Shown in pieces: positions 6,395-23,575 of a stretch of DNA of 64,000 nucleotides (within the stretch, counting starts at the first letter, position 1; each line of letters starts with the position of its first letter). Position numbers and translations under genes: made by a program. Source of the DNA: an uncultured Oscillospiraceae bacterium (GTDB lineage: Bacteria; Bacillota; Clostridia; Saccharofermentanales; UBA5734); contig CAYVHB010000014.1 in the NCBI GenBank assembly GCA_964450865.1, forward strand, positions 2,676 to 66,675. Reading direction: 5' to 3'. The notes below the pieces were generated by a model. That model worked only from the letters and a program-made list of their open reading frames with translations. It searched no databases and had not been told where the DNA came from.

Positions 6395-7518
6395 ATAAGG
6401 CTTACAAATATCGCATTTACCCCAATCCTGAGCAAGAAATACTTATCAATAGAACATTTGGTTGTGTACGTTTTGTCTACAATCGAATGCTTGCCAATCG
6501 CAAGGAAGTTTATGAACAAATCAAAGATGATAAGGATTTTCTAAAACAGCAAAAATATATGCTTCCTGCTGATTTCAAGAAGGAATTTACCTGGCTGAAA
6601 GAAGTGGACAGTTTGGCACTGTCCAATGCTCAACTCAATTTGCAAACAGCTTACAAGAAATTTTTTCGCGACAAATCGGTCGGGTTCCCAAAATTCAAAA
6701 GTAAGCATCGCGATAAGAAGTCATATACCACCAACAATCAAGGTGGTACGATTCGACTCATCGACGATAAAACTATCCGATTACCGAAACTGAAAGATGT
6801 GCGTATTAAGTTGCATCGTCAACTGCCAAAAAACGCAATCGTCAAGTCAGCGACAATCAGCAAAACACCTACTGGTAAGTATCAAATCTCCATTCTCGTT
6901 GAGTACGAAGCCGAGATTAAGTCTGTAGCCTCGACAGCGGAGACAGTTTTGGGGCTGGATTATTCGTCTAAGACATTGTTTGTCGATAGCCAAGCAAACA
7001 GTGCGAACTACCCAAGATTCTACCGGCAAGCCGAAGCCAGACTGAAAAAAGCGCAACGCAAACTATCCAAACGCCAGAAGGGCGGCAAAAACCGTGATAA
7101 ACAACGCCTTAAGGTTGCCAAACTCCATGAAAAAATCGCCAATCAGCGCAAAGACTTCTTGCACAAGCTGTCAAGGCAGATAGCCAACGCCTATTCAGCA
7201 GTCGCAATCGAAGACCTGAATATGCGCGGAATAGCTCGAAGTCTGAATCTGGCAAAATCCACTAATGACAATGGTTTCGGGATGCTCAAAACCTTTTTAG
7301 CGTACAAACTTGCTGAACAGGGTAAACCGCTTATCACAATCGATAAGTGGTTCCCTTCGAGTAAAATGTGTCGTCATTGCGCAAGCATCAATGCCGAATT
7401 GATTCTTAGCGACAGAGTCTGGACTTGTGAACACTGTGGTGCAGAATTAGACCGTGATTTGAACGCCGCAATCAATATCAAGAATGAGGGTTGTCGAATC
7501 TTAGGATTGGCATTCTAA
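6391..7518 (+). CDS. tnpB: TnpB RNA-guided endonuclease (RuvC + Zn ribbon)
   Basis: KAYKYRIYP, FGCVRFVYN, RuvC-I LGLDY, RuvC-II AIEDLN, CRHC...CEHC, RuvC-III DRDLNAAINI. Confidence 0.95.
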   Translation: MNKAYKYRIYPNPEQEILINRTFGCVRFVYNRMLANRKEVYEQIKDDKDFLKQQKYMLPADFKKEFTWLKEVDSLALSNAQLNLQTAYKKFFRDKSVGFPKFKSKHRDKKSYTTNNQGGTIRLIDDKTIRLPKLKDVRIKLHRQLPKNAIVKSATISKTPTGKYQISILVEYEAEIKSVASTAETVLGLDYSSKTLFVDSQANSANYPRFYRQAEARLKKAQRKLSKRQKGGKNRDKQRLKVAKLHEKIANQRKDFLHKLSRQIANAYSAVAIEDLNMRGIARSLNLAKSTNDNGFGMLKTFLAYKLAEQGKPLITIDKWFPSSKMCRHCASINAELILSDRVWTCEHCGAELDRDLNAAINIKNEGCRILGLAF

Positions 7519-7652
7519 TCTGGAATAAGAACCGTTGGGCGAACGGGGATAGCTTGGTAATTATATTGGCATTAGCTGGTACGTCCCAAGAAGCCCCTAC
7601 CTCTAAGCGTTAGCGTAGGTGGTGGGAGTATGTCACAGGAAGGGAATGATTA
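7519..7652 (+). ncRNA. Putative TnpB reRNA/omegaRNA 3' portion (right end plus flanking guide); 5' end probably lies inside tnpB
   Basis: Structured right-end sequence AACCGTTGGGCGAACGGGGATAGCTTGG...GAAGCCCC...TCAC. Inferred from the known biology of IS605 TnpB. Confidence 0.55.
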
Positions 7653-9913
7653 TGGCTGCCGGCCTGAAGAAGGAACTCATCCTTGATAACCTGGATTGTG
7701 CAAATTGTGCCGCGCGGATCGAAAAAGCAGTCCAGGACATTGATGGCGTCACGGATGCCGTGGTTGATTTCACAACCAGAAAGCTCAGCTTCGAGATTAC
7801 GCATCCCGCCAGGCAAGCGCCTATCATGCGCGCTGTTACCGCGGCCGCTTTGCAGATCGAATCGGGACTGGAGATTTCGGAATCCGCGGCAGCCAGGCCA
7901 AAACCGGAGCCGGACAATCTGATCAAGCTGATCGCGCCCGCGAAAATGATCCGGCTGGGCCTGGGCCTTGTTTTATTCGTCCTGGGCCTGGCCTTCCAGT
8001 TTACCGAATGGATCGAGCTGGCGATATTTCTTGCCAGTTATGTGCTGATTGGCGGCGATGTCCTGCTGCGGGCCGTCCGCAATATCATCAGGGGCCAGGT
8101 TTTTGATGAGAGCTTCCTGATGAGTATTGCCACGCTTGGCGCCTTTGCGATTCGTGAATTCCCCGAAGCAGTCGCAGTCATGCTGTTTTATGAAGTGGGT
8201 GAGCTTTTTGAAAAGCTGGCGGTTGGCCGTTCCCGGCGCTCGATCAGCGCCCTGCTGGATATCCGGCCCGATTATGCCAATCTGCAAACAGGCGACACGA
8301 TCCGGCAAGTCTCACCGGAGGCCGTGCAGATTGGCGACCGGATTGTCATCAAACCAGGCGAGAAGGTCCCGCTTGACGGGTTAATTGTCGAGGGGACCTC
8401 GCTGCTGGACCTGTCTTCGCTAACCGGTGAATCCGTTCCTCGTTACGTAAAGCCGGGCGACGCGGTCTATTCAGGTTCGATCAATAGAAACGGCTTATTT
8501 TTCGTTGAAGTAACCAGGGCCTATCAGGATTCAACCGTCGCGAAAATCCTTGACCTGGTGCAGCATGCCAGCAGTAAAAAAGCCCCGACTGAAAAGTTCA
8601 TCACGAGCTTTGCCCGTTACTATACGCCGGCGGTTGTCATCATTGCCCTGGCCCTCGCGGTCATTCCACCGCTGGTCTGGCCGGGCACAGCCTTCGCGGA
8701 CTGGCTTTACCGGGCGCTGATATTCCTGGTTGTTTCTTGCCCCTGCGCCCTGGTCATTTCGATTCCCCTCGGCTACTTCGGCGGCATCGGCGGCGCATCC
8801 AGGCATGGCATCCTGATCAAGGGCAGCAACTACCTCGAAGCATTGAAAAATGTCGATACGATCGTCTTTGACAAGACTGGCACGTTAACCCGGGGTGTTT
8901 TCAAGGTAACCCGGATTCACAGCCGGCTGGCTGCGGACCAGGATTTGCTGGAAGTAGCAGCTTATGCGGAAAGTTATTCCAATCACCCGATTGCCCAGTC
9001 GATCCTGCTGGCCTATGGGCGCGAGATCAGAAAGGAACGGATTTCCAGCTATGACGAGATCCCCGGCCATGGCATCCAGGCCGTTATTGACGGCAGAACG
9101 GTCCTGGCCGGCAGCAGCCGGTTCCTGCAATCTTCAGGTGTTACGGTCGACGATCCTGTTGCGGCGGCCGCCGATTCTGTAGAATCAGGGACGATCGTTC
9201 ATTTCGCCATTGACCAGCATCATGCCGGCTATATCGTTATTGCCGATGAAATCAAAGCCGACGCGGCCCGGGCGATCAGTGAGCTCAAGGCGCTCGGCAT
9301 CCGGAAGACCGTCATGCTGACCGGTGACAGCAGGCTGGCGGGCGAGCAGATCGCCGCGCGGCTGGGCCTGGATGAGGTCTACGCCGAGCTGCTGCCCGAC
9401 CAGAAAGTCCAGCAATTTGAGCAGCTGGAAAAGGCGAAAACAACCCGGGGCAAGCTGCTGTTTGTCGGCGATGGCATCAACGACTCACCGGTCCTGGCCC
9501 GTTCGGACGTTGGCATTGCGATGGGCGGCCTGGGCTCGGATGCGGCCATTGAGGCGGCCGATGTTGTGATCATGACCGACCAGCCGTCAAAAGTTGGCGA
9601 GGCGATTCGGCTTGCCCGCAAAACCAGCCGGATTGTCCGCCAGAATATCGCCCTGGCCCTCGTGGTGAAGGTTAGCGTATTATTAATGGGTGCCGGTGGT
9701 ATAGCGTCGATGTGGGAGGCGGTCTTCGCTGACATGGGTGTGGCCTTGATCGCAATTTTTAATGCGATGCGGATCCTGAACGGGCCAAAGAACGGACCAA
9801 AGAATAAATCGAAAAACGAATCAAAAAACGAATCGAAGAACGAATCGAAAAATGAATCGAAAAATGAATCGAAAAATGAATCGAAAAATGAATCGCAAAA
9901 ACGGGCCGGATAA
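7652..9913 (+). CDS. cadA: Cd/Zn/Pb-translocating P1B-type ATPase (CadA/ZntA)
   Basis: HMA LDCANC, LTGES, CPC, DKTGTLT, SNHP, GDGINDSP. RBS GGAAGGGA before ATG 7652 (alternative 7646). Confidence 0.92.
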   Translation: MAAGLKKELILDNLDCANCAARIEKAVQDIDGVTDAVVDFTTRKLSFEITHPARQAPIMRAVTAAALQIESGLEISESAAARPKPEPDNLIKLIAPAKMIRLGLGLVLFVLGLAFQFTEWIELAIFLASYVLIGGDVLLRAVRNIIRGQVFDESFLMSIATLGAFAIREFPEAVAVMLFYEVGELFEKLAVGRSRRSISALLDIRPDYANLQTGDTIRQVSPEAVQIGDRIVIKPGEKVPLDGLIVEGTSLLDLSSLTGESVPRYVKPGDAVYSGSINRNGLFFVEVTRAYQDSTVAKILDLVQHASSKKAPTEKFITSFARYYTPAVVIIALALAVIPPLVWPGTAFADWLYRALIFLVVSCPCALVISIPLGYFGGIGGASRHGILIKGSNYLEALKNVDTIVFDKTGTLTRGVFKVTRIHSRLAADQDLLEVAAYAESYSNHPIAQSILLAYGREIRKERISSYDEIPGHGIQAVIDGRTVLAGSSRFLQSSGVTVDDPVAAAADSVESGTIVHFAIDQHHAGYIVIADEIKADAARAISELKALGIRKTVMLTGDSRLAGEQIAARLGLDEVYAELLPDQKVQQFEQLEKAKTTRGKLLFVGDGINDSPVLARSDVGIAMGGLGSDAAIEAADVVIMTDQPSKVGEAIRLARKTSRIVRQNIALALVVKVSVLLMGAGGIASMWEAVFADMGVALIAIFNAMRILNGPKNGPKNKSKNESKNESKNESKNESKNESKNESKNESQKRAG

Positions 9914-9934
9914 CGGACCGGAGAACGGGCCGGC
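9779..9934. repeat. 12-bp-period tandem array encoding (NESK)n at the cadA C-terminus and continuing past the stop
   Basis: AACGG(G/A)CCAAAG x2, AATAAATCGAAA, AA(C/T)GAATC(G/A)AAA-type x7, then nAACGG(G/A)CCGGn x3. Confidence 0.95.
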
Positions 9935-10712: not shown

Positions 10713-10803
10713 TGGCGGAGAGAGTGGGATTTGAACCCACGGTAGACTCTCATCTACGCCGGTTTTCAAGACCGGTGCCATCAGCCAGCTCGACCATCTC
10801 TCC
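10713..10803 (-). tRNA. tRNA-Ser (anticodon UGA), CCA encoded
   Basis: Reverse complement GGAGAGATGGTCGAGCTGG...CCGGT-CTTGAAA-ACCGG, long variable arm, GGGTTCAAATCCC, TCTCTCC-G-CCA. Confidence 0.97.
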
Positions 10804-11034: not shown

Positions 11035-11337
11035 TTATTCGATGGTCATGAAGTCGGCAAAGCCGGTGACGTCAAAGATCTCCTTGATGGTTTCGCTGCA
11101 GCCGGTAATTTTCATGGTGGTACCGATGGCGTTGACCTTCTTCTGGGCGGAGAGCAGGACGCGCAGGCCGGAGCTGCTGATGTATTCCAGATCGGCCAGG
11201 GCAAAGACCAGGTGGAAGCGGTCCTGCTCGTAGACCTTTTTCAGTTCTGCTTCCAGTTCGGGTGAGGTAATGGTGTCCAGGCGTCCGGTCAGGGCGAACA
11301 TAATGACGTCGTTTTCCTGGGTTTTGTTAATTTTCAT
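11035..11337 (-). CDS. STAS-domain anti-sigma factor antagonist
   Basis: LTGRLDT..SPELE...LEYISSSGLRVLL...IFDVTGF, with the phosphoacceptor Ser motif intact. Confidence 0.92.
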   Translation of the reverse strand: MKINKTQENDVIMFALTGRLDTITSPELEAELKKVYEQDRFHLVFALADLEYISSSGLRVLLSAQKKVNAIGTTMKITGCSETIKEIFDVTGFADFMTIE

Positions 11338-11362
11338 GGTCTGAACCTCCTCAATATTATCG

Positions 11363-11416
11363 CTGTCGGCATGTATGCAAGGATAAGGTCAGTCTGTCGG
11401 CATGTATGCAAGGATA
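11363..11416. repeat. 23-bp exact direct repeat (31-bp period) between the RsbW-like gene and the STAS gene
   Basis: CTGTCGGCATGTATGCAAGGATA at 11363-11385 and 11394-11416. Confidence 0.9.
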
Positions 11417-11505
11417 GGGCGGATACCTGTCATCTGGCGGCTGCATATTCAGCCAGCGGGCAGTGCGTTCGCTGCACTCGGGTCAGGGCGTCTGCAGGGG
11501 CTTGG

Positions 11506-12114
11506 TCAGAAGGCTTTCTTGACGATCATTTCCACACCGCCAGCCGTAACGGTGACCACGACGTCGTCAGCAAAGCGCTCGATGATTGATTTCTCCAGAC
11601 CGGTAGCCTCAAGGTCGGCCGCCCGCTCTTCAGCGGGTGCTTCCTGATTGTAAAGGGCCATGGACCAGGTCAGGGACGAACGCATCACCGGCATATAGGC
11701 TGCGCCCATGAAGCCATAGGCCATGGTCGAATAGAGCTCGGGCGTGTCAACCAGGGTGGGATCTGCCGCGAATAAACCGGCAAACAGATAGCTGATCTTG
11801 TTCTTGAGGCCTTTGGGCGGGGTGCTGCGCTTGGCCGACGAGACGGCGATGAAAGCCTCGCGGGCTGTCTCCGTCACGGAAGCCTTGACGGTTATGTGGA
11901 TATCAAATGCATTGTCAGTGCGTTCGAGCCAGAACAGTCCTTCGCTCTGCTTGAGAACATCCGTTGTCATCGCGATCGATTCTTCGGCCAGCAGGCGCAG
12001 GATATTGGTGTTCTTTGTATTAAGACCACAATAAACAGCGGCGCGTTCGACTTCGTCCAGGATATTGGCGATTACCTGCACATCCGCGCTGACAGGAAAG
12101 AGATCTGTTTTCAT
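11506..12114 (-). CDS. Hypothetical protein, degenerate RsbW/anti-sigma-like HATPase fold (inferred)
   Basis: LRLLAEESIAM resembles the N-box helix. C-term GLEKSIIERFADDVVVTVTAGGVEMIVKKAF resembles the RsbW C-terminus. Co-oriented with the STAS gene. Confidence 0.6.
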   Translation of the reverse strand: MKTDLFPVSADVQVIANILDEVERAAVYCGLNTKNTNILRLLAEESIAMTTDVLKQSEGLFWLERTDNAFDIHITVKASVTETAREAFIAVSSAKRSTPPKGLKNKISYLFAGLFAADPTLVDTPELYSTMAYGFMGAAYMPVMRSSLTWSMALYNQEAPAEERAADLEATGLEKSIIERFADDVVVTVTAGGVEMIVKKAF

Positions 12115-12357: not shown

Positions 12358-13212
12358 ATGGTGAAACTGCCCGGATTGACTTCCCTGGTGCTTGTACTGC
12401 TGATTGTTACCCTGGTCTTGCCGCTGGCCGCTTGTGGCGGCAATAAGGGACCGGTTGCACCGCTGGATGTCACCGATTTGCGCGGCCATCGCATCGGGGT
12501 CCTGATGGCCTGGAGCCCGGACTATATTCTTGAGGATTATGGCGGCATTGACCTGGTCCGCTTTGACGGTCTCAGTGATGCCCTGCTGGCCTTGAAGTAT
12601 CGGCGGATCGAGGCTTTTGCTATGGATACCATCGATGCCAAGTACCTGTGCAGCGTCCAGCCTGGTTACCAGATGCAGGAAACCCCCGTCGGGATGGACC
12701 GCTATGTCACCTTTGTCAATAATAACCGCACCGATCTCCTGGTGCAGTTCAATGAATTTGCCGCCGGATTCATGAATAGTGATGAATACCGTGACCTGCA
12801 TGAGCGGGTCATGAATGTCGATAACGGCGAGTTTGTCAACAATGATATCCCGGCCCATACCGAGGGGCCGCTGATCAACGTCGCCATTGACGCGGCCGCG
12901 ATGCCTTACACCTCCTATGACTTTGCATCGGACCGTTATATTGGCAGCGACGTCGAGGTGATCCAGATGTTTGCCTGGCAGTATGGTTACCGGCTAAATT
13001 TTATCGACAGTGATTATAATGGTTCGGTCATGAATCTGACGTCCGGCAAGGCCGACCTGTTTATCTGTGCCCTGTCGGAGGCTTATCGTTTTGAGGTGGA
13101 ATTGACCCATAAAGCGCTGGTCAGTGATCCATATTTTTCGACGTCGATCCTGCTCGTCGGGATGGGTGACCGCACGGCAATGAGCTTTGATAATCCGGAC
13201 CTCGGCTACTGA
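12358..13212 (+). CDS. Polar amino-acid ABC substrate-binding lipoprotein (SBP_bac_3), circularly permuted
   Basis: Lipobox LAAC. The GlnH C-half motifs (DLRGHRIGV, KYRRIEAFAMD) precede the N-half motifs (VAID...PY...GSDVEV...GKADL...SDPY). Confidence 0.85.
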   Translation: MVKLPGLTSLVLVLLIVTLVLPLAACGGNKGPVAPLDVTDLRGHRIGVLMAWSPDYILEDYGGIDLVRFDGLSDALLALKYRRIEAFAMDTIDAKYLCSVQPGYQMQETPVGMDRYVTFVNNNRTDLLVQFNEFAAGFMNSDEYRDLHERVMNVDNGEFVNNDIPAHTEGPLINVAIDAAAMPYTSYDFASDRYIGSDVEVIQMFAWQYGYRLNFIDSDYNGSVMNLTSGKADLFICALSEAYRFEVELTHKALVSDPYFSTSILLVGMGDRTAMSFDNPDLGY

Positions 13213-13290
13213 GGCCCAAAGGGCACCCTGTATGAGATTTTAACCGCAAGTAACCCCAAGCCACATACCATGTACTAGGAGGAGATATGG

Positions 13291-13989
13291 ATGGACTCGT
13301 TTTTCAAGTATCTGAATGACCTGTTGTATGCCAGCCTGATCTATGAAAATCGCTACCTGTTCTTGCTGAAAGGGCTGGGCAATACGCTGCTCCTGACGGT
13401 TTTTTCCTTCCTGCTCGGCACCTTGTTCGGCTGCCTGTTTACGCTGGGCAATCTGCGCGGCGGCAAACTCGTCCGCAAGCTGCTGCAGGTGCTGACGCAG
13501 TTCCTGGTGCGCATTCCCAGCCTGGTCCTGCTGATGGTTTTCTCCTATATTATTTTCGCCGAGGTCAACATGAGCGGCCTGATCCTGGCCATCCTGGCTT
13601 TTACGATGAAAACCGCGTCTTATATGAGCGATATTTTTACCTCGGCGATCCAGTCCCTTGATTCGGGCGAGGTCGAGGCGGCCCGTTCGCTGGGCTTCTC
13701 CAAGCTGAAGGCCTTTTTCTATATTACGTTGCCCCAGGCGGTGCAGGTGGCCCTGCCGGTGTACAAGAACCAGTTCATCACGACGCTGCAGGAGACTTCG
13801 ATTGTTGGTTTCCTGGCCATCCAGGACCTGACCCGGGCCAGCAATATCATCGCCAGCCGGACCCTGGATCCCTTTATTTCCCTGATCATTGTCTCGGTGG
13901 CCTACCTGACCATCGGCTGGGTGACGAATCTGCTGCTATCGCTCCTGGAACGCTCCCACCATATCAGTCCTGCGGAGGTTGCTGCATGA
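13291..13989 (+). CDS. Amino-acid ABC transporter permease (HisM/GlnP family)
   Basis: LLKGLGNTL, EAARSLG EAA loop, ITLPQA, LQETSIVGFLAIQDLTR. Confidence 0.92.
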   Translation: MDSFFKYLNDLLYASLIYENRYLFLLKGLGNTLLLTVFSFLLGTLFGCLFTLGNLRGGKLVRKLLQVLTQFLVRIPSLVLLMVFSYIIFAEVNMSGLILAILAFTMKTASYMSDIFTSAIQSLDSGEVEAARSLGFSKLKAFFYITLPQAVQVALPVYKNQFITTLQETSIVGFLAIQDLTRASNIIASRTLDPFISLIIVSVAYLTIGWVTNLLLSLLERSHHISPAEVAA

Positions 13990-15068
13990 TCCAGTTGAAG
14001 AATCTGGCCAAGTCGTTTGGTACTAATGTCATTTTCCAGAACGTGAATTATGAGATCAAGAAAGGCGACGCCGTGGTCATTATTGGCCCGTCCGGCTGTG
14101 GCAAGAGCACCATGCTGCGCTGTATCAATGGCCTGGAGAAGCCTACGGGCGGCGAGGTCTGGGTGAACAACCAGAACATCGCCGATCCGAAGGTGGCCAT
14201 TGACAAGATTCGCAGCAAGATGGGGATGGTTTACCAGTCCTTCAACTTGTTCAGCCACAAGAATGTCCTCGAGAACGTGATCGCCGCGCCCATGCTTGTC
14301 AATCGCCTGGGCCGCAAGGAAGCGATTGCCGAGGCCATGCAATATCTGCGGCTGGTCGGAATGGAGAACCGCGCGTTTCATATGCCCAACCAGCTGTCCG
14401 GCGGTCAGAAACAGCGGGTGGCGATTGCCCGTTGCCTGGCGATGCATCCGGAGGTCATTTTATTCGATGAGCCAACGTCCGCGCTCGATCCGACGATGGT
14501 CGACGAGGTGCTCGGCGTTATCCAGCGCCTGATCAAGGACAAGATGACCTGCGTGATTGTCACCCATGAGATGTCCTTTGCCCAGAAAGTAGCCACCCAG
14601 GTTATTTACCTGGATGACAGGGGCATCTACGAAACGGGCACGGCCGAGCAGATCTTTGCCCGGCCGCAGCGGGAGAAGACCCAGGCGTTCATTCACAAGC
14701 TGCGGGTCTTTGAGCGGACGATTACACCGGTCAATGCTGACCTGTACAGTTTCATGACGGAGGTTCGCTCCTATTGCGCCCAATATGGCTTTACCAATCG
14801 CCAGCTTGATACAGTCAACCTGATTTATGAGGAGCTGATTTATCCGCTGGTTGCGGATCTGGCACGGAATAAGGCTATTATCTTCCGTTTGCGCTGCAAT
14901 ACGGCCGGGGAGATGATCGAGGTAATATTGACCGATCCGCGGGCGGCCGGCGACTGGCTGACGGCCGAAGGGGTCGACGAGCTGGGCGTAAAAATTATCC
15001 GCAGCATGGCTAGGGAAATGGAATCGACGCTGAAAGACGGTGTGGCCGAGCTGCGGATGCTGCTGTAA
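13986..15068 (+). CDS. Amino-acid ABC ATPase (GlnQ-like) fused to a C-terminal RsbW-like domain
   Basis: GPSGCGKST, LSGGQKQR, ILFDEPTSALD, VTHEM. About 120 extra residues: VNLIYEELI...VILTD...DELGVKIIRSMA. Confidence 0.9.
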   Translation: MIQLKNLAKSFGTNVIFQNVNYEIKKGDAVVIIGPSGCGKSTMLRCINGLEKPTGGEVWVNNQNIADPKVAIDKIRSKMGMVYQSFNLFSHKNVLENVIAAPMLVNRLGRKEAIAEAMQYLRLVGMENRAFHMPNQLSGGQKQRVAIARCLAMHPEVILFDEPTSALDPTMVDEVLGVIQRLIKDKMTCVIVTHEMSFAQKVATQVIYLDDRGIYETGTAEQIFARPQREKTQAFIHKLRVFERTITPVNADLYSFMTEVRSYCAQYGFTNRQLDTVNLIYEELIYPLVADLARNKAIIFRLRCNTAGEMIEVILTDPRAAGDWLTAEGVDELGVKIIRSMAREMESTLKDGVAELRMLL

Positions 15069-15083
15069 GCTGGAAGTAAGCGG

Positions 15084-17417
15084 GTGAAAAAAGTGAAAAC
15101 GCCGGCGAAATCAGATGTCCTGATTGTACGACTACTGTCCCGGACCGTATGCCTGGCCCTGGTCCTGGCCTTGCTGCTGGCCGCACCGCTGGCCCTCGGT
15201 GGCTGTGCCCTGCAGCCGGCGGCCAAAGTGACGCTGGGCAGTGTCTATGACATGAACGCTGACAATTATATTATTGGTGTGCCGCAGGGCGCGGCGTCGA
15301 TGGTGGCCGTGGAAGCAGCCTTTCCCAAGGCCAGGATCGAGTATTTCCAGAGCAACCACGACGGTTACCTGGCCGTTCGCTCAGGCAAGATCGACGCTTA
15401 TGCCTATGACAAGGATCAGATGACCTTTGCCGCCGCCAACCTCGGCGATGTGGAGCTGCTGGATGAGGTGATCCATTCCACCCCCGTGGTGGCGGGGATC
15501 AATCCCCAGCGGACTGATCTGGTGGATCCGGTCAATGCCTTTATTGCCCAGATCAAGGCTGATGGCACTTATGCTGACATGTTCGACCGCTGGGTGACGA
15601 AAGCGACCGGGGTATTGCCCAGCATCCCTGATCCGGCCAGTCCGGTCGGGACTTTGCGCGTCGGTACAGCCGGAACGGTTGAGCCTTTCAGCTACTATGA
15701 CAAGAATCAGCAGCTTTGCGGCTTTGATATTGAGCTGATCCGGCGCCTGGCCCTGTTCATGAATGTGCGTGTTGAGCTGACCGCCCTGGATTTCGGGCCG
15801 ATGCTGGCCGCCCTGGAGGCCGGCAAGCTTGACCTGGTTATTTCCAATCTGCACGATCAGCAGCAAGTCCGGGATATTGTCCTGCTGTCTGATCCGTATA
15901 ATGTCTCGCGGACGGTGATGATGGTCAAAAAGGGCCGCTTCCAGCTGGCCGCCGGCATTCGCAGCATTGCCCAGCTGGCCGGCAAGCAAGTCGGGGTGCT
16001 GACCGGCAACATGCTCGACCAGATCCTGGCCAAGAGTGTGCCATCGGCCGTGCCGGTTTATTTCAATACCTATCCGGACCAGATCACGGCGATCAAGACT
16101 GGCCGCATTGACGCGATGATCCTGGACACGCCGATTGCTGTCCTGTATGCCGCCAATTCCGAGGGCGTATCACTGGTCCAGGAAAAAATGCAGAGTGATG
16201 ACTATGCCCTGGCCCTGAAGCTGGAGAACCAGGCGCTGTATGCCAAAGTCGACGCCGTTGTCGCGGCCCTGAAGGCTGACGGCACGCTGGACCAGATGGC
16301 GAAAAAATGGCTGGAAGGGCCAGCGGAGCAGAAAGTGCTGCCAGACCTGCCCCTGTCCGGCGCGAATGGCACCTTGCGCTTTGGCACCAGTTCCCTGACG
16401 GAGCCGTTTGCGTATCTCAATATCCAGAACCAGATCATCGGCTTCGATGTCGAACTGGCGCGGCGGATTGCCAGTGAGCTGGGCATGAACCTGGAAATTG
16501 TCGACATGGATTTCGCGGCCCTGATCCCGGCCTTGCAGTCCGGCAAGGCCGACATGATTGGTTCCTGTATCACCGTTACCCCGGAACGGTCCAAAATGGT
16601 GCACTTTACCCCCAGTTACTACGCCGGCGGTATCTCGGCGATTGTGGCCGCCCCCTCTGCTGGCAATACCGGTAATGGTAACGGCCAGTCCGGCCCGGCT
16701 GGCTTGAGTTTTTACCAGCGCCTGATCAATAGCTTCAACCGGACTTTTGTGATCGAGTCGCGCTATAAGCTGATCCTGCAGGGTCTGTGGGTGACGGTCC
16801 TGATCTCGGTTATGGCCGCGATCATCGGTTCGATCCTTGGTTTCCTGCTCAGCCTGATGCGCCGCTCCCGCAACAAATGGGCTAGTATCCCGGCCCGGAT
16901 CTACATCAAGGCCATGCAAGGCACGCCGATTGTCGTCCTGCTGCTGATTCTGTATTACATTATTTTCGGGAAAGTCAACATCAGTGCCATTGTCGTGGCC
17001 ATTCTGGCTTTTGCCCTGAACCTGGCCGCCTATGCCGCGGAAATCATCCGTTCCGGGATCGAGGCGGTGGACCGGGGACAGATCGAGGCTGCCAGTGCCC
17101 TGGGCTTTACAAAACTCCAGGTTTTTACACGCATCACCTTTCCCCAGGCCGCCCGTTATATCCTGCCTGTTTTCAAGGGGGAATTGGTTACGACGATCAA
17201 GATGACTTCGGTGGTCGGGTATATAGCGATCCAGGACCTGACGAAAATGAGCGACATCATCCGCAGCCGGACCTATGAAGCGTTCTTCCCGCTGATTGCG
17301 ACCGCGCTGATCTATTTCCTGGTGGCCGCTGCGCTGACATCGCTGCTGACCCGCCTGGAGTTCCGGATTGATCCGAAACGGCGCAAGCGGGCCATCAAGG
17401 GGGTGAGCAGCCGATGA
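15084..17417 (+). CDS. Lipoprotein with two tandem permuted SBP_bac_3 domains fused to an amino-acid ABC permease
   Basis: LALGGC lipobox; two copies of KADGT...W followed by LRxGT...EPFxY...GFD(I/V)EL. C-terminal permease with EAASALG and ITFPQA. Confidence 0.9.
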   Translation: MKKVKTPAKSDVLIVRLLSRTVCLALVLALLLAAPLALGGCALQPAAKVTLGSVYDMNADNYIIGVPQGAASMVAVEAAFPKARIEYFQSNHDGYLAVRSGKIDAYAYDKDQMTFAAANLGDVELLDEVIHSTPVVAGINPQRTDLVDPVNAFIAQIKADGTYADMFDRWVTKATGVLPSIPDPASPVGTLRVGTAGTVEPFSYYDKNQQLCGFDIELIRRLALFMNVRVELTALDFGPMLAALEAGKLDLVISNLHDQQQVRDIVLLSDPYNVSRTVMMVKKGRFQLAAGIRSIAQLAGKQVGVLTGNMLDQILAKSVPSAVPVYFNTYPDQITAIKTGRIDAMILDTPIAVLYAANSEGVSLVQEKMQSDDYALALKLENQALYAKVDAVVAALKADGTLDQMAKKWLEGPAEQKVLPDLPLSGANGTLRFGTSSLTEPFAYLNIQNQIIGFDVELARRIASELGMNLEIVDMDFAALIPALQSGKADMIGSCITVTPERSKMVHFTPSYYAGGISAIVAAPSAGNTGNGNGQSGPAGLSFYQRLINSFNRTFVIESRYKLILQGLWVTVLISVMAAIIGSILGFLLSLMRRSRNKWASIPARIYIKAMQGTPIVVLLLILYYIIFGKVNISAIVVAILAFALNLAAYAAEIIRSGIEAVDRGQIEAASALGFTKLQVFTRITFPQAARYILPVFKGELVTTIKMTSVVGYIAIQDLTKMSDIIRSRTYEAFFPLIATALIYFLVAAALTSLLTRLEFRIDPKRRKRAIKGVSSR

Positions 17418-18580
17418 AGATCCAGGTATCCCATCTGGTCAAGCAGTTTGGTTCAAATGTTGTGCTCAAGGATGTGAATGTCGAGATCGGCCGTGGCGAG
17501 ATTGTCTCGATCATTGGGCCGTCGGGGACCGGCAAAAGCACGCTGTTGCGCTGTATCAATCTGCTTGAGACGCCCTCAGGCGGTTCGATCCAGATTGATG
17601 GCGTCGATCTCCAGGCGCGCGGGACCAATATCCATAAGCTGCGCCAGAAAATGGGCATGGTTTTCCAGTCGTTCAACCTCTTCGCCCATCTGATGGTGAT
17701 TGAGAATATCATGCTCGGCCCGCTTGATCTGCTGAAAATGCCACCACAGACAGCCTATAATGAGGCGATGCAGCTGCTGGGCCAGGTTGGCCTGATCGAC
17801 AAGGCCCTCGCCTATCCGGATGAGCTTTCCGGCGGCCAGAAGCAGCGGGTGGCCATCGCCCGGGCCCTGGCGATGCATCCGGAGATCATCCTGCTCGATG
17901 AGCCGACCAGCGCCCTGGATCCGACGATGATTGGCGAGGTTCTGGCCGTGCTGCGCAATCTGGCCCGGGCCGGCCTGGCCATGATCATCGTTACCCATGA
18001 AATGAAATTTGCGGCAGAAATATCAACACGGGTCCTGTACATGGACGAGGGAATTATCTACGAGGACGGACCGCCGGCCCAGATTTTCCAGCATCCGCAA
18101 CGGGAGAAAACCCGGGCTTTTGTTAAGCGGATCAAGAGCTTTACGACGGAGATCCGCTCGCGGACCTTTGACTTTTACGGTCTTGTGTCCCAGATCGAGG
18201 ACTTTGGCCGGCGCCAGATCCTGGAGCTGCACCAGATTCATGACATCCAGCTGGTCCTTGAGGAACTGGTTGTTTTGCAGCTGCTGCCGCACCAGACCGG
18301 GAGCGAGCCGTATGTCAAGATCAATGTCAGTCACGTGGAAAGCAGCGGCGATATTGAGATCTCGCTGAATTATGGCGGACCGGCCTGGAATCCGCTGGCG
18401 TCCATGACGACTGAGCCGGCCGCCAGCCCAGCCGCCGCGGAGCCGGCCGCCAGCCCAGCCGCTGCGGAGCCTGGCGACGACCTGTCGCTACGGCTTTTGC
18501 GGCATAAGATCAAGACAGCCAGCTATTCTTATGCTGAAGCCGACGGAATGAACACGCTGCTCATCCTGATCCGGGGCTGA
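17414..18580 (+). CDS. Second amino-acid ABC ATPase (GlnQ-like) fused to a C-terminal RsbW-like domain
   Basis: GPSGTGKST, LSGGQKQR, LLDEPTSALD. C-term DIQLVLEELV...ISLNYGGPAWNPL...SYSYAEADGMNTLLI. 27-bp duplication at 18413-18466 (EPAASPAAA x2). Confidence 0.9.
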   Translation: MKIQVSHLVKQFGSNVVLKDVNVEIGRGEIVSIIGPSGTGKSTLLRCINLLETPSGGSIQIDGVDLQARGTNIHKLRQKMGMVFQSFNLFAHLMVIENIMLGPLDLLKMPPQTAYNEAMQLLGQVGLIDKALAYPDELSGGQKQRVAIARALAMHPEIILLDEPTSALDPTMIGEVLAVLRNLARAGLAMIIVTHEMKFAAEISTRVLYMDEGIIYEDGPPAQIFQHPQREKTRAFVKRIKSFTTEIRSRTFDFYGLVSQIEDFGRRQILELHQIHDIQLVLEELVVLQLLPHQTGSEPYVKINVSHVESSGDIEISLNYGGPAWNPLASMTTEPAASPAAAEPAASPAAAEPGDDLSLRLLRHKIKTASYSYAEADGMNTLLILIRG

Positions 18581-19624: not shown

Positions 19625-19945
19625 ATGGGTATTTTTTATCAGGTGACAGATGGCCTGGTCACGATATTTCTCGGCGAACGCCTGGATATGGCCCAGTCCG
19701 CTGAATTTGAAGCTGAATTGGATACCTGCCTGCCCTTGGTTCGTCAGGGACTTTGCCTGGATTGCTCGCGTCTGGTATATTTGAGCAGTGCGGGCTTGCG
19801 GGTCATTTTGAAGGGAGCCCGGCTGATGAAGGCTGCCAGTCAGCCCTACCAGATGACGCAAGTGCAAGACGATGTCTATAAGGTTCTGAACCTGTCCGGA
19901 TTTACCCAGATCGTCAGGATCAGCCGGCAGACTCAAACCGATTGA
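19625..19945 (+). CDS. STAS-domain anti-sigma factor antagonist
   Basis: LGERLD...LDCSRLVYLSSAGLRVIL...VLNLSGF. Confidence 0.9.
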   Translation: MGIFYQVTDGLVTIFLGERLDMAQSAEFEAELDTCLPLVRQGLCLDCSRLVYLSSAGLRVILKGARLMKAASQPYQMTQVQDDVYKVLNLSGFTQIVRISRQTQTD

Positions 19946-20083
19946 CGGATGGTGCGGCTGTGGCTGAAGAGACCGATACAGACACCGCCGGATTAATGAT
20001 CAGGTATGGCCGGATCAATTTAATGATCAGGTTGTATCTATTATAACAGCGGTTCACAGCAGCGATCATGGGTGAGGGGCTTT

Positions 20084-21721
20084 ATGCTGATTAACGAAAG
20101 CTGGCAGCCGGTTGCGGCGACAGATGGCATCGAAATTTATCCATTCATCAGAAAACCCAATTTTTCCTGTTCCAATTCGTTTGTTTTATCGACGGATCAG
20201 TGGATCATTCTGATCGATCCGGGTGCCGATGCTGGCCAGATGAGTAAAATACGTCAGACTGTCAGCCAGGCCCTGGCGGCCCGGCCTCGTCCGGTCCTGG
20301 TCCTGCTGACCCATTGTCACGTCGACCACTGGGTGGCCGCTTTTGCTGATCCGCTTTTTCGCCAGCTGGGCGAGGTCAGAATCGCCGCCCATCAGCAGGG
20401 TGCGGCTTATATCATGGATAAAAACAAGGTCATGACCATGTCAGACCTGGCCGGCCTGCCGCTGCCGGACGCAATCGTTGATCTGCCATTGTTTGCCAGT
20501 CAGCCAGGTCCGCCCCATCGCCTGGCCCTGGCCATCGGCTCCCGGGATATTGCACTGATTGATCCCATGCCGGGACACAGCCCGGACAGTATATGTATCC
20601 AGATTGGCAACCTGCTTTTTGCCGGGGACTTCTTTTTCGCCCTTGATTATCTGATCGCCGGCCTCAATGGCTGGGATCGTGATGCCATGGGGCAATCCAT
20701 CGAGCGGATGCAGGAGCTGGCCCGGCAAGATCAGATCGGACTATTCTGTACCGGCCACGGCAATCCCTTTCCAGCCGCCGATGCCAGGCTGATCCTGCAA
20801 AAAATGCAGCGGCAGATAACCCGGATGCCGGTTTTACCCGAATTGAATATGCAGCATATCCGGACCTCGGCCGCCTATGCCGTGGAGATGATGAATGAGC
20901 TGCATGATACCATGGCGGTTATGACCGGGCGGCTGTATGCCCTGAGTTATTATCTGGAGATGCTCGGTGAAGAGGTGCGTTCAGCGAAATACACCGCACA
21001 GCTTGATACAGCCGCCCTGGATGATCTCGTGCAGACCTATCAGGAATTCGCCGAGCGTTACACCACTGGTGATCTGATCGATTTTCACCTGCTCAAAAAG
21101 GTTGGTCAGATCATCGCGAAAATGGAGCGTTTATTGTCAGGCCAGCAAGGGGAAAGCATCATCGATGCAAGGTTACTCCAGCGGCTCTCGTGGACATTTG
21201 GCGATTTTATCAAGGCAACCGGGGGTATGCCCCTGGAGGTTATCGGCGAGGATACCGATCTGGATAGCCTGGTGGCTGATCTGTTGCAATCACTGCAGAG
21301 AAAGGCCGATCCTGGGCAAATGATGGCCGCGCTGGACAGCGAGACACAGTTTGTGGATGGGCTGGTGAACCGGCTGGCTGACGCGACCCTATTCCGGAAA
21401 GTCAAGCTGGATTTTAAGGCGGCTGGCAGATTGCCCGCTGTCAACTTGCATCGGGCCCGGTTCCGCGATGCCCTGAGCGGCCTGCTCGAGGAAATCGCCG
21501 CGCTTGACACCCGCCGGATTGAGCTGCAAACCCGGATTGCCGACGGCACCCCGGCAGCAGTCTGGCTGACGGTGAGCAGCCCCGATGGTATGGATGAGGC
21601 CGCGCTCAATGCCCGGAAATGGCCGATGTATCAACGCAAATTTGCCTTGCAGGGCATCAGCCTGACCCTTGAGCAAGGGCAAAACGGCCAGGTCATACAC
21701 CTGGCCCTGCCAGTGAGCTGA
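20084..21721 (+). CDS. MBL-fold metallohydrolase fused to a degenerate histidine-kinase-like (HisKA/HATPase) region
   Basis: LIDPG, THCHVDH, PGHSPD, FAGD, GHG. Then NELHDTMAVMTG (H-box-like) and a HATPase-like C-terminus lacking N/G boxes. Alternative start GTG 20072. Confidence 0.75.
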   Translation: MLINESWQPVAATDGIEIYPFIRKPNFSCSNSFVLSTDQWIILIDPGADAGQMSKIRQTVSQALAARPRPVLVLLTHCHVDHWVAAFADPLFRQLGEVRIAAHQQGAAYIMDKNKVMTMSDLAGLPLPDAIVDLPLFASQPGPPHRLALAIGSRDIALIDPMPGHSPDSICIQIGNLLFAGDFFFALDYLIAGLNGWDRDAMGQSIERMQELARQDQIGLFCTGHGNPFPAADARLILQKMQRQITRMPVLPELNMQHIRTSAAYAVEMMNELHDTMAVMTGRLYALSYYLEMLGEEVRSAKYTAQLDTAALDDLVQTYQEFAERYTTGDLIDFHLLKKVGQIIAKMERLLSGQQGESIIDARLLQRLSWTFGDFIKATGGMPLEVIGEDTDLDSLVADLLQSLQRKADPGQMMAALDSETQFVDGLVNRLADATLFRKVKLDFKAAGRLPAVNLHRARFRDALSGLLEEIAALDTRRIELQTRIADGTPAAVWLTVSSPDGMDEAALNARKWPMYQRKFALQGISLTLEQGQNGQVIHLALPVS

Positions 21722-21766: not shown

Positions 21767-23575
21767 TCAGACCGGTTCGCCAGGGGTCACGAATTCCGGC
21801 TTCGGACTGCCGGACCCTTCCCTGTAGAAGACGCTGTGGCCGCTGGTTTTTTTCGCGGTGTACATGGCGTGATCGCTCTGGCGGATGATGCTCTCCAGGT
21901 CTTCGCCCGGCTCATAGCGGGAGACCCCGATACTGATGCCCGCTTCATAGGCTCGCGCATCAATCACGATCGGTTCACAAAATTGCCCGACTACCTGGTT
22001 GACAGTCTGGGAGATATCTCCCGTCTGGCGGTTGAGCCAGGTAAAGATCACGAACTCGTCTCCGCCATAACGGCAGACCAGGTCCCGCTCGTGAAAGCAG
22101 GCCTGGATGCGCCGGCTGGCCTCGATCAGGACGCCATCGCCGACGCCGTGGCCGTACTGGTCGTTGATAGCCTTGAATTTGTCCAGATCCATAAACAGGA
22201 TATAAAGCGCCTGACCGGGCGGGACGGATATGCCCTTGTCGAGGATGGCATTCAGGCAGAAGCGATTCTTGAGACCGGTCAGGGGATCGATGTTGATCGA
22301 CATCTCCAGCTGGTTCTTCTGTCGATAGGCGTCGAAGAAGTTCATCATCGTCAGATAGGAAAAGAGGATCAGCATATACAGGAATGCGTAGGGAATAAGG
22401 CTAAAATCCGGCTCGGTATACAGCTCATGCAAGACCGCCGGTATCACAACGGCATAGGACAGAAGCATCAGGACCGCGCCCTTGCGGTGCTGGCGCAACC
22501 CCTGAATCAGGATATAGGAGAAATAAACCAGGCTAAGCACGACCAGGTTGACAAAGTACGGGTATAGTCTGCCGTATACTGTATTGGGCGTGAACAGGGT
22601 CAGGAACACGATCGCCAGGATCAGGCCGCGTGCGCTCCATTTGATGGCCGCGTAGCGGGGCGTGAACTGCAGGTGAAAAAACATCAGGACCAGAACGGGT
22701 AATAGCAGGTAGCCGACCATGAACTCGATGCGGACCGCCAGATCCCAGGGCATTGTTGGCAGGTAATCATAAATCTGGCGATGACCGCGCACAATCACCC
22801 GCACCACCAGCAGGAAACAGGCAATGGAGAGGTGCAGTGAGGCGATGAAGTCGCGATTGACGGTAAAGGTGGACAGAAAAAACAGCCCCAGGACCAGGCT
22901 GAAGGTCAGCAGGAAAATTTCCAGGTTTTTCTGCGCGGTGACATGGGCGTTGAGCACGGATTCGGTTCCCAGCCGTATTGCTTTCCAGAAACCGCCATCC
23001 ATGTAGTCAAAGTTGGCAACCTCCAGCAGGAACAGGGCCTGGCCGTTCGCATCCGCGTGAAAATAGCCAGTCTGGCTGTGCCAGGCGGGTACGTAGTCCG
23101 CCTGGCGGTCAGCGACCGTGCCGTTTTCGATGATCAGTCTCCCGTTGATCAGCAGCCGGTAAGCGCTGGCCTGATCGAGAATATTGACTGCATAATGCGT
23201 GTCCGGATTGAGCCCGCTCACTCGCAGCCGGTAGGTGGCCACGCCGGTGACGCCACCGCCTGGTCCGGGCTGTCTCAGCCAGTGGTCGGGTACGGTGCGA
23301 TATTCGCTGGTCCGGGTGCCGGCCATATTGGCAATATCATTAATCCGCAGATTGGGGTAATATTGCCATTGACCGCCCAGTATGACGACGTCACGGCCGG
23401 GCCAGTTGCCCAGGTCAAGCTGGCCCGCTGTCGCCTGTACCGATCTGGATGTTGCTTCGAGATGAAGCGTCTGGCTGATGAGCATCGCTGCGGTTGCAAG
23501 CAAAATCAGTGCCAGGATCACCCAGGGCACGAGTCTGCTTGCTATTTGTGCGGTCGATCGGCTTGCGATTGGCAT
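21767..23575 (-). CDS. 7TM-DISM-type sensor diguanylate cyclase (GGDEF)
   Basis: Extracellular LGGQWQYYP...VPDHW...GVATYRL, multiple TM helices, DPLTGLKNR...MDLDKFKAIND.YGH..GD...RYGGDEF. Confidence 0.88.
   Translation of the reverse strand: MPIASRSTAQIASRLVPWVILALILLATAAMLISQTLHLEATSRSVQATAGQLDLGNWPGRDVVILGGQWQYYPNLRINDIANMAGTRTSEYRTVPDHWLRQPGPGGGVTGVATYRLRVSGLNPDTHYAVNILDQASAYRLLINGRLIIENGTVADRQADYVPAWHSQTGYFHADANGQALFLLEVANFDYMDGGFWKAIRLGTESVLNAHVTAQKNLEIFLLTFSLVLGLFFLSTFTVNRDFIASLHLSIACFLLVVRVIVRGHRQIYDYLPTMPWDLAVRIEFMVGYLLLPVLVLMFFHLQFTPRYAAIKWSARGLILAIVFLTLFTPNTVYGRLYPYFVNLVVLSLVYFSYILIQGLRQHRKGAVLMLLSYAVVIPAVLHELYTEPDFSLIPYAFLYMLILFSYLTMMNFFDAYRQKNQLEMSINIDPLTGLKNRFCLNAILDKGISVPPGQALYILFMDLDKFKAINDQYGHGVGDGVLIEASRRIQACFHERDLVCRYGGDEFVIFTWLNRQTGDISQTVNQVVGQFCEPIVIDARAYEAGISIGVSRYEPGEDLESIIRQSDHAMYTAKKTSGHSVFYREGSGSPKPEFVTPGEPV

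Follow-up and report, generated by a model that had tools for sequence, protein, structure and literature searches.

A predicted RsbW-like pseudo-kinase tail on GlnPQ-type ABC importer ATPases and its possible link to STAS partner switching

The transporter genes

The window analysed here is a stretch of 64,000 nucleotides from an uncultured Oscillospiraceae bacterium (contig CAYVHB010000014.1, positions 2,676 to 66,675), and all coordinates below are those of the window unless a related locus is named. On its forward strand an open reading frame (ORF) at 17414–18580 encodes a 388-residue ATP-binding cassette (ABC) ATPase, referred to here as ATPase 2, which consists of a nucleotide-binding domain (NBD) of the polar amino acid type followed by a C-terminal GHKL-like tail (tail 2), the subject of this report. 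The ORF is the ATPase subunit of a GlnPQ-type amino acid importer in which the substrate-binding domains (SBDs) are fused to the permease. The NBD proper (residues 1–236; 17414–18121, delimited on an AlphaFold2 (AF2) model against ArtN, ArtP and HisP) matches Pfam ABC_tran (PF00005; E 8e-38), is 51–59% identical to the ArtN, ArtP and TTHA1159 structures and 43% identical to HisP, and is intact: Walker A (GPSGTGKST), the Q-loop (Q85), LSGGQ (residues 138–142), Walker B (D162–E163) and the H-loop (H195) are all kept and fall in invariant columns of a 76-sequence alignment. The best NCBIfam matches are TcyN (NF008428; 290 bits) and GlnQ (NF007027; 284 bits), and because neither equivalog cut-off is reached (406 and 379 bits, respectively) 'GlnQ' is a family-level label only. 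The full-length AF2 model (predicted local distance difference test score (pLDDT) 89.9, predicted TM score (pTM) 0.70) aligns in Foldseek over about 237 columns with ArtN (4yms_A), ArtP (2olj) and HisP (1b0u) at root-mean-square deviations (rmsd) of 0.9–1.5, the lowest value being that for 4yms_A; alignments running beyond the NBD (MetN, MalK-type or sugar-transporter and SugC chains) appear only at rmsd 7–10 Å. The solved polar amino acid transport ATPases that match best are 240–258 residues long, leaving no room for a tail domain of about 125 residues, and a Foldseek search of the PDB with the full-length model returned no solved ABC ATPase with such a tail.

The permease partner of ATPase 2 is a 777-residue GlnP-like fusion (15084–17417, forward strand) with three SBP_bac_3 stretches and a BPD_transp_1 domain, and its gene overlaps that of ATPase 2 by 4 bp. 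At all of the related loci examined the gene for the tailed ATPase comes straight after, or shares 4 bp with, a permease gene to which one or more SBDs are fused, an architecture like that of Lactococcus lactis GlnPQ, whose tandem SBDs are fused to the permease (PMC8025302). A second ABC ATPase of 360 residues (ATPase 1; 13986–15068, forward strand) lies upstream of both and carries a tail of its own (tail 1; 14691–15065), recognised by a tail hidden Markov model (HMM) and by Pfam HATPase_c_2. ATPase 1 is served by a separate substrate-binding protein (12358–13212) and a permease (13291–13989), both on the forward strand and assigned by Pfam, and this arrangement recurs at locus L005. Tail-bearing amino acid ABC systems are often arranged as two or three tandem paralogous operons, as in L005, L038, L039 and the window itself (12358–18580); L005 has three tail-bearing ATPases within 7.7 kb.

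Fold and homology of the tail

Tail 2 occupies residues 237–388 (18122–18577, forward strand) and is predicted from AF2, Foldseek and hhalign to be a SpoIIAB/RsbW-like pseudo-kinase domain with its secondary structure elements in the order β-α-α-β-β-(loop)-α-β-β. An earlier sequence-only reading of this DNA had proposed an RsbW-like domain starting at position 18135, citing the strings DIQLVLEELV, IEISLNYGGPAWNPL and ASYSYAEADGMNTLLI. All three are present within the last 150 residues of the product of the 17414–18580 ORF, and the proposed kinship is borne out by Pfam searches with the family, by hhalign and by Foldseek; the start coordinate is one base off a codon boundary, and the reading frame places it at about 18122–18134.

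The structural evidence comes from an AF2 model of tail 2 built with an alignment of the family's tails as input (pLDDT 86.7, pTM 0.78). Its neighbours in Foldseek are GHKL proteins only, and the best PDB matches are the anti-sigma kinases UsfX (8ih8_C), SpoIIAB (1tid_A, 1th8_A and 1l0o) and RsbW (6m37_C), at probability 1.00 and TM 0.62–0.73, with E values of 3e-5 to 1e-3 for 8ih8_C, 1tid_A, 1th8_A and 6m37_C; SiaB follows. Tails of the TOBE, NIL, CBS or ACT type were rejected by the fold search, and no Pfam match to TOBE, NIL or CBS was found.

In sequence comparisons, tail 2 by itself has no NCBIfam match and no Pfam match (HATPase_c_2, PF13581, does not appear even at E ≤ 10); a word-index protein search with it returned nothing, and neither the tail nor a tail profile had a relevant match when searched against the sequences of the PDB. 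Its homology to HATPase_c_2 is thus visible only via its family. We cut the tails from relatives of ATPase 2 found in a whole-protein search and aligned them, and 50 of these 53 tails match PF13581 at E ≤ 1, the best at 4.2e-8. With hhalign, the tail family aligns with the RsbW-type kinase encoded at 8551–8955 of locus L009, a bona fide member of its type (Pfam E 3.5e-24), at 95.6% probability (E 1.2e-8), and with a combination of three operon kinases plus SpoIIAB and RsbW sequences taken from PDB alignments at 93.6% (E 2.2e-7). Alignments to a single SpoIIAB or RsbW sequence are in the correct register and weak (5% and 3%, respectively), significance being reached only with the operon's RsbW-type kinase as partner.

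The tail resembles SpoIIAB, RsbW and UsfX (HATPase_c_2) in its Bergerat α/β fold, in its secondary structure order, in an N-box helix of the form 'EE..xN', in 'G..YNP' after strand 3 and in a 'DGKN.L.I' C-terminal hairpin; these three motifs are also shared between the tail family and the RsbW-type kinases of the operons. The tail is almost certainly a SpoIIAB/RsbW-type GHKL (Bergerat) fold, homologous to the anti-sigma kinases.

A degenerate ATP site

The equivalents of three kinase motifs can be placed in tail 2 by hhalign. The N-box-equivalent helix EELVVL (18260–18277; family EELvxN aligned with EEIFVN) contains Glu283 and Glu284 and has Leu288 at the position of the Mg-ligand Asn. The G1-box equivalent, NYGGPAWNP (18368–18394), has Tyr320 in place of the adenine-binding Asp, aligned to the D of DQGKPYNP, DEGVG and DEGDS, and retains just the first Gly of DxGxG. 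At the G2-box equivalent, DDLSL (18476–18490; dDLS aligned with GGLG), both glycines are gone.

We surveyed these positions in 116 close homologues and in 119 diverse representatives of 50% clusters. The only kinase motif kept invariant in the tail family is the N-box Glu pair (116/116 close homologues; 118 and 119 of the 119 representatives for the two residues). The Asn position is variable: among the close homologues it is Asn in 76, Gln in 26, His in 11 and Leu in one, the Leu being that of the window's tail 2, and among the representatives Gln in 45, Asn in 26, Glu in 17, His in seven and Leu in five. Tyr occupies the G1 Asp position in 114 of the 116 close homologues; in the representatives the residues most often found there are Tyr (86), Trp (13), Cys (seven) and Phe (four), and Asp is not among the seven commonest. 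The G2 positions of the representatives are occupied by Asp/Glu and Ser, and the ATP lid of the family is about 11 residues shorter than that of the operon kinases in hhalign. Judged by these motifs, loss of the canonical ATP site throughout the family is probable. The earlier reading had taken the domain for a pseudo-ATPase and had called for a survey of the N and G boxes in homologues, and the survey agrees with it: the Glu pair is retained, the Asn varies, and the G1 Asp and the G2 glycines are lost. With the G1 Asp replaced by Tyr, the G2 glycines lost and the lid shortened, the tail is therefore a predicted pseudo-kinase.

A private expansion of the lid loop

Between the G1 and G2 equivalents of tail 2 lies a vestigial ATP-lid loop, LASMTTEPAASPAAAEPAASPAAAEPG, of 27–28 residues (18395–18475, forward strand; defined from the loop-length survey and AF2). 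It contains a tandem duplication (18413–18471) that Tandem Repeats Finder reports with a period of 27 bp, 2.2 copies, 96% matches and a score of 111. Its two full copies differ by a single synonymous C>T change and are translated as EPAASPAAA-EPAASPAAA-EP. Both the existence of this duplication, which is also evident from direct reading of the sequence, and its position at the ATP lid had been recognised from sequence alone; the latter is supported by hhalign, which places the insert in the gap between YGGPAWNP and DDLS, and by a pLDDT below 50 at residues 336–352 of the full-length model.

The loop between 'NP' and 'DDLS' is 5–10 residues long in 115 of the 116 close homologues and 3–11 residues long in 116 of the 119 representatives, the 27–28 residues in the window being the longest seen, and in the family it is conserved in length and acidic. 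The closest homologue (P0002; 64% identity) has a short loop, so the expansion in ATPase 2 is recent and private; P0002 does have Ala/Pro/Ser-rich additions of its own. In ATPase 2 a low-complexity Ala/Pro/Ser insert, of which the recent 27-bp duplication is a part, has lengthened the lid remnant again, and in the model this insert appears as a disordered surface loop that is probably of little consequence. The expansion is local and private, and the earlier suggestion of relaxed constraint does not extend to the family, where loop length is conserved.

Distribution of the tail

The two tails of the window are related to each other at a distance. BLASTP aligns only 34 residues of them (E 0.005), and an HMM was required to relate them; built without either window sequence, it gives tail 2 a score of 130 bits and matches tail 1 over its whole length with 60 bits. 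This agrees with the earlier inference that the trait is present in both ATPases. Tail 1 is a divergent member (16–18% identity to tail 2) that differs from all other members in having an Asp in the G1 box position and a Gly in one of the G2 positions (DELGV). Its N box has no Asn, and the first Gly of G1 is missing. Its match to HATPase_c_2 is weak (15.5 bits against a gathering score of 27.4 bits; E 0.018, profile positions 9–125 of 127). Tail 2 had been described as the clearer of the two, which is correct as regards closeness to the family consensus and incorrect as regards direct Pfam matches, since only tail 1 gives one.

A whole-protein search returned thousands of relatives of about 360 residues, 55–68% identical and with the same extension. 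When a profile of the tail alone, the check that the sequence-only reading had proposed, was searched against 1.84 billion cluster representatives, it matched 1,837 proteins at E ≤ 1e-3, of which 294 reach E ≤ 1e-10. Every one of the 17 matched sequences that we read has the tail fused to an ABC NBD, either in an ATPase of about 360 residues, in a fragment that includes the NBD C-terminus, or in a single chain of up to 1,150 residues with the order SBD-SBD-transmembrane domain-NBD-tail; none of the 17 is a free-standing tail domain. Single-chain transporters with SBD, permease, NBD and tail include P0166 (1150 aa), P0172 (907 aa), P0228 (728 aa) and P0138. The taxa that carry the tail include Syntrophomonadales, Kiritimatiellia, Lentisphaeraceae, Smithellaceae/Syntrophus and Oscillospiraceae, and span at least four phyla. 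There is very little doubt that an RsbW-like tail is a family-wide trait of these ATPases.

STAS and partner-switching genes

A search of 45 loci (398 kb) with the window's STAS protein gave STAS matches at 12, all of them directly downstream of the tailed ATPase gene and none elsewhere in the flanks. The STAS gene begins 13–50 nt after the ATPase gene in L007/L009/L019, L015/L021/L024, L022, L023, L026, L044 and L045, and when loci are grouped into lineages at 60% tail identity an adjacent STAS gene is present in five of the 18 lineages that could be evaluated. At most of the STAS-linked loci the STAS gene is followed by a SpoIIE-type PP2C phosphatase gene, a canonical HATPase_c_2 kinase gene, or both. 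Those of Kiritimatiellia and Lentisphaeraceae have the order glnP, glnQ-tail, STAS, PP2C and canonical HATPase_c_2 kinase, with tiny gaps or overlaps, and the PP2C is of the SpoIIE type with a HAMP domain. L026 has STAS and then a kinase, and L045, which belongs to a different subfamily, has STAS, a 152-aa ORF, a QueT-SpoIIE PP2C and HATPase_c_2. PP2C and canonical kinase are both present in L007, L009, L015, L022 and L045. The 152-aa ORF of L045 (4175–4633 of that locus) has no Pfam match, and a 530-aa ORF that follows the kinase (6801–8390) reaches the end of the contig; these two could be further components of a STAS/PP2C/kinase module.

Two STAS genes flank the ABC cluster of the window (12358–18580), one on either side, each within 1.1 kb and in a separate transcription unit. 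STAS 1 (11035–11337, reverse strand; 100 aa, PF01740 E 3e-19) is a candidate partner in which the Asp of GRLD and the SSSG Ser are both retained, and it is 42% and 51% identical to the STAS proteins encoded after glnQ-tail in L009 and L044, respectively. STAS 2 (19625–19945, forward strand; 106 aa, PF13466 and PF01740, E ~1e-9) is encoded about 1 kb downstream of ATPase 2. All of the STAS proteins that we read (the two in the window, five from operons and that of L044) keep the GRLD Asp and have a Ser that precedes the Gly of S-S-A/S-G by two residues, which we take to be the phospho-site register of SpoIIAA S58 and RsbV S56.

Between STAS 1 and the ABC cluster is orf202 (11506–12114, reverse strand; 202 aa), which has no Pfam match, lies in the same orientation as STAS 1 and is transcribed divergently from the cluster. 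Its identity to the 214-aa protein encoded directly after the STAS gene behind glnQ-tail in L044 is 44% (E 3e-49), and this recurrence of the STAS–orf202 pair (11035–12114 in the window, 5322–6468 in L044) indicates that the pair stays linked to the transporter despite rearrangement. A helix (LLAEE.IAMTTDVL) and the C-terminus (G.EKSII..FADDV.V) of orf202 loosely recall the RsbW N-box and G2; comparison with RsbW profiles by hhalign does not support the resemblance (probability <2%).

Proposed function and alternatives

The closest canonical relatives of the tail are the RsbW-type kinases encoded in the STAS-linked operons, and this relationship, read from sequence, suggests that a copy of an ancestral rsbW was fused to glnQ and then lost catalysis. 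As a working model, the two tails of a GlnQ dimer would together make up a regulatory module in the cytoplasm. A SpoIIAA/RsbV-like STAS protein would dock on this module in its unphosphorylated form, as RsbV does on RsbW, without being phosphorylated by it. Where PP2C and a true RsbW are encoded alongside, these would set the phosphorylation state of the STAS protein, which in turn would turn import on or off or, in the opposite direction, signal the status of the transporter. A precedent for a STAS protein that controls an ABC ATPase is MlaB with MlaF (in excerpts of PMC7367683), and in a ColabFold model of SypA with SypE the N-box Glu is predicted to hydrogen-bond the phospho-Ser of the STAS protein, at an interface that, according to its authors, is almost the same as in the canonical complexes of SpoIIAA and RsbV (PMC10120452). 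Taken as a whole, a GlnPQ-type ATPase with a pseudo-kinase tail and a STAS-switched importer is the best explanation that we have, and we put its chances at about even. That STAS docking is what the tail does stands at even chances or a little below. More tentative again is the larger proposal that, in a large GlnPQ-type family, a decoy RsbW domain on the ATPase receives the output of a partner-switching cascade, docking of unphosphorylated STAS protein gating ATP hydrolysis and transport, or that the transporter sequesters the STAS protein and so reports nutrient flux to the cascade.

Several observations weigh against a STAS-switched importer. No STAS gene lies within 5–6 kb in 13 of the 18 lineages, including that of the closest relative (L004/L005), and in L008, L020 and L030, three loci of the Planctomycetes–Verrucomicrobia–Chlamydiae (PVC) group from one sub-lineage of its Kiritimatiellia-like clade, the PP2C gene directly follows or overlaps glnQ-tail with no STAS gene between them. 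(L030 still has an RsbW-type kinase.) In the window the STAS genes are about 1 kb away and outside the transcription unit of ATPase 2, and tblastn found neither PP2C nor canonical RsbW within its 64 kb; both could be encoded elsewhere in the genome. With Leu in place of the N-box Asn and a 27-residue loop close to where docking is expected, the window's copy may be atypical in its behaviour. By analogy with MlaB, the STAS protein could also bind the NBD itself rather than the tail.

The main rival is an autonomous tail for ligand sensing or dimerisation, like MetN C2/NIL, ModC and MalK TOBE, in which the tails would pair beneath the NBDs and the remodelled pocket would take up a small cytoplasmic ligand, for example a cation or the amino acid being transported, causing trans-inhibition of uptake with no need for STAS. 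We consider this rather unlikely: it accounts neither for the position-specific recurrence of STAS, PP2C and RsbW genes in five lineages nor for the tail's descent from the kinase subfamily of the same operons, and we know of no ligand for the tail. In its favour, the tail is in all cases joined to the NBD of a type I importer that is paired with an SBD-fused permease, most lineages have no neighbouring STAS gene, the most conserved residues (EE, Y, G, NP and DDLS) line the former nucleotide pocket, and SpoIIAB and RsbW are dimers (PMC10120452). An evolutionary relic with a structural or stabilising role only, its insert and duplication being neutral drift in a GC-rich gene, would fit the unique, low-complexity and disordered character of the insert, the single synonymous change between its copies and the additions of P0002. 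It is nonetheless improbable, given that the domain is kept in 1,837 clusters and in at least four phyla, with surface and pocket positions that do not vary and a loop of constant length, a degree of conservation that indicates purifying selection for a function.

Two other possibilities draw on the ancestry of the fold. The tail might still be an active, atypical ATP-binding serine kinase that phosphorylates STAS or the transporter, and the invariance of the N-box Glu pair, the Asn kept in many relatives and the Asp at the G1 position of tail 1 count in favour of one. The Tyr at that position in 114 of the 116 close homologues, the absence of Asp from its seven commonest residues in the 119 representatives, the missing G2 glycines, the shortened lid and the lack of Asn in the window's copy all speak against catalysis, as does the presence of separately encoded true kinases in the linked operons, and we regard this as the least probable of the readings. 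Alternatively the tail might be an anti-sigma-like module that tethers a sigma factor, or another transcription regulator, to the membrane depending on the state of the transporter, with the STAS protein as release factor, on the model of MalK–MalT, a 'trigger transporter'. Sigma binding is the ancestral function of the fold (SpoIIAB with sigmaF, UsfX with SigF), these proteins are the top structural matches, and STAS would be the classical antagonist; no sigma-factor Pfam family was found among the called neighbour genes of the inspected loci, however, and such sequestration appears quite improbable.

Relationship to known systems

SpoIIAB and RsbW kinases are often encoded beside STAS and PP2C genes, as are some of the tails, and differ in that SpoIIAB, RsbW and UsfX are free-standing, whereas the tail is the C-terminus of an ABC ATPase, has no canonical ATP site and has no sigma factor nearby. 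The closest parallels for a kinase of this type acting outside transcription are SiaB with SiaC–SiaD (SiaB being among the structural matches of tail 2) and SypE with SypA (the latter discussed in PMC10120452), where an RsbW-like kinase and a PP2C set the state of a STAS protein for a non-transcriptional target; here the proposed target is instead an ABC importer that bears a decoy kinase domain. The tailed ATPases also resemble MlaB–MlaF, in which a single-domain STAS protein is encoded with an ABC transporter, there the MlaFEDB lipid transporter (in excerpts of PMC7367683). MlaB has a conserved Ser/Thr at the phospho-site position, at the interface with MlaF; the same excerpts leave phosphoregulation undemonstrated and name no kinase or phosphatase, whereas some of the tail operons encode both. 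MlaF is bound by MlaB at its NBD and has no RsbW-like domain, unlike the window's ATPase, which carries the canonical STAS receptor fold.

Tails known on the ATPases of type I importers are TOBE, NIL and CBS (PMC11466899). Those of MalK (TOBE), MetN (NIL/C2), ModC and OpuAA (CBS) are like the tail described here in following the NBD directly and in belonging to the same kind of transporter, and excerpts of PMC11466899 and PMC7367683 assign such tails roles in post-translational control and in holding the NBD dimer together. The GHKL-type tail has an unrelated fold and is absent from the types surveyed in those excerpts. Our full-text searches of open-access papers and bioRxiv found no paper on an ABC ATPase with a HATPase_c_2-type tail, an earlier mention elsewhere being possible, and within the same literature no paper linking STAS or partner switching to an amino acid importer. 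To our knowledge, post-translational control of ABC importers is known for few tail types, namely TOBE, NIL/C2 and CBS. If our interpretation is correct, the RsbW-like tail would be a fourth and widespread type, found in anaerobes of several phyla, as well as the first regulatory domain of GHKL fold on an ABC ATPase and part of the first partner-switching circuit that targets an ABC importer. It would join anti-sigma partner switching to nutrient import, two systems that are well studied and hitherto separate, and would also explain a region of about 125 residues that is unannotated in thousands of proteins labelled 'amino acid ABC transporter ATP-binding protein'.

Other features of the window

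The only RNA gene detected in the window by ARAGORN and Rfam is a tRNA-Ser (anticodon TGA) at 10713–10803 on the reverse strand; Rfam identified no riboswitch or leader in the window that points to the substrate of the transporters, and a scan for promoters and terminators gave nothing above the shuffled expectation. Downstream of STAS 2 the forward-strand segment that it begins (19625–21721) continues with a 549-aa protein that has an N-terminal metallo-beta-lactamase fold and a C-terminal region of about 300 residues without a Pfam match. Next after it, on the opposite strand, is a 7TMR-DISM/GGDEF diguanylate cyclase gene (21767–23575). To the left of the tRNA gene, the ORF at 7619–9913 encodes a heavy-metal P-type ATPase (HMA, E1-E2_ATPase and Hydrolase domains) with a C-terminal repeat array at 9778–9933, in which a 12-bp unit in about eight tandem copies encodes KNES repeats (KNESKNESKNES).

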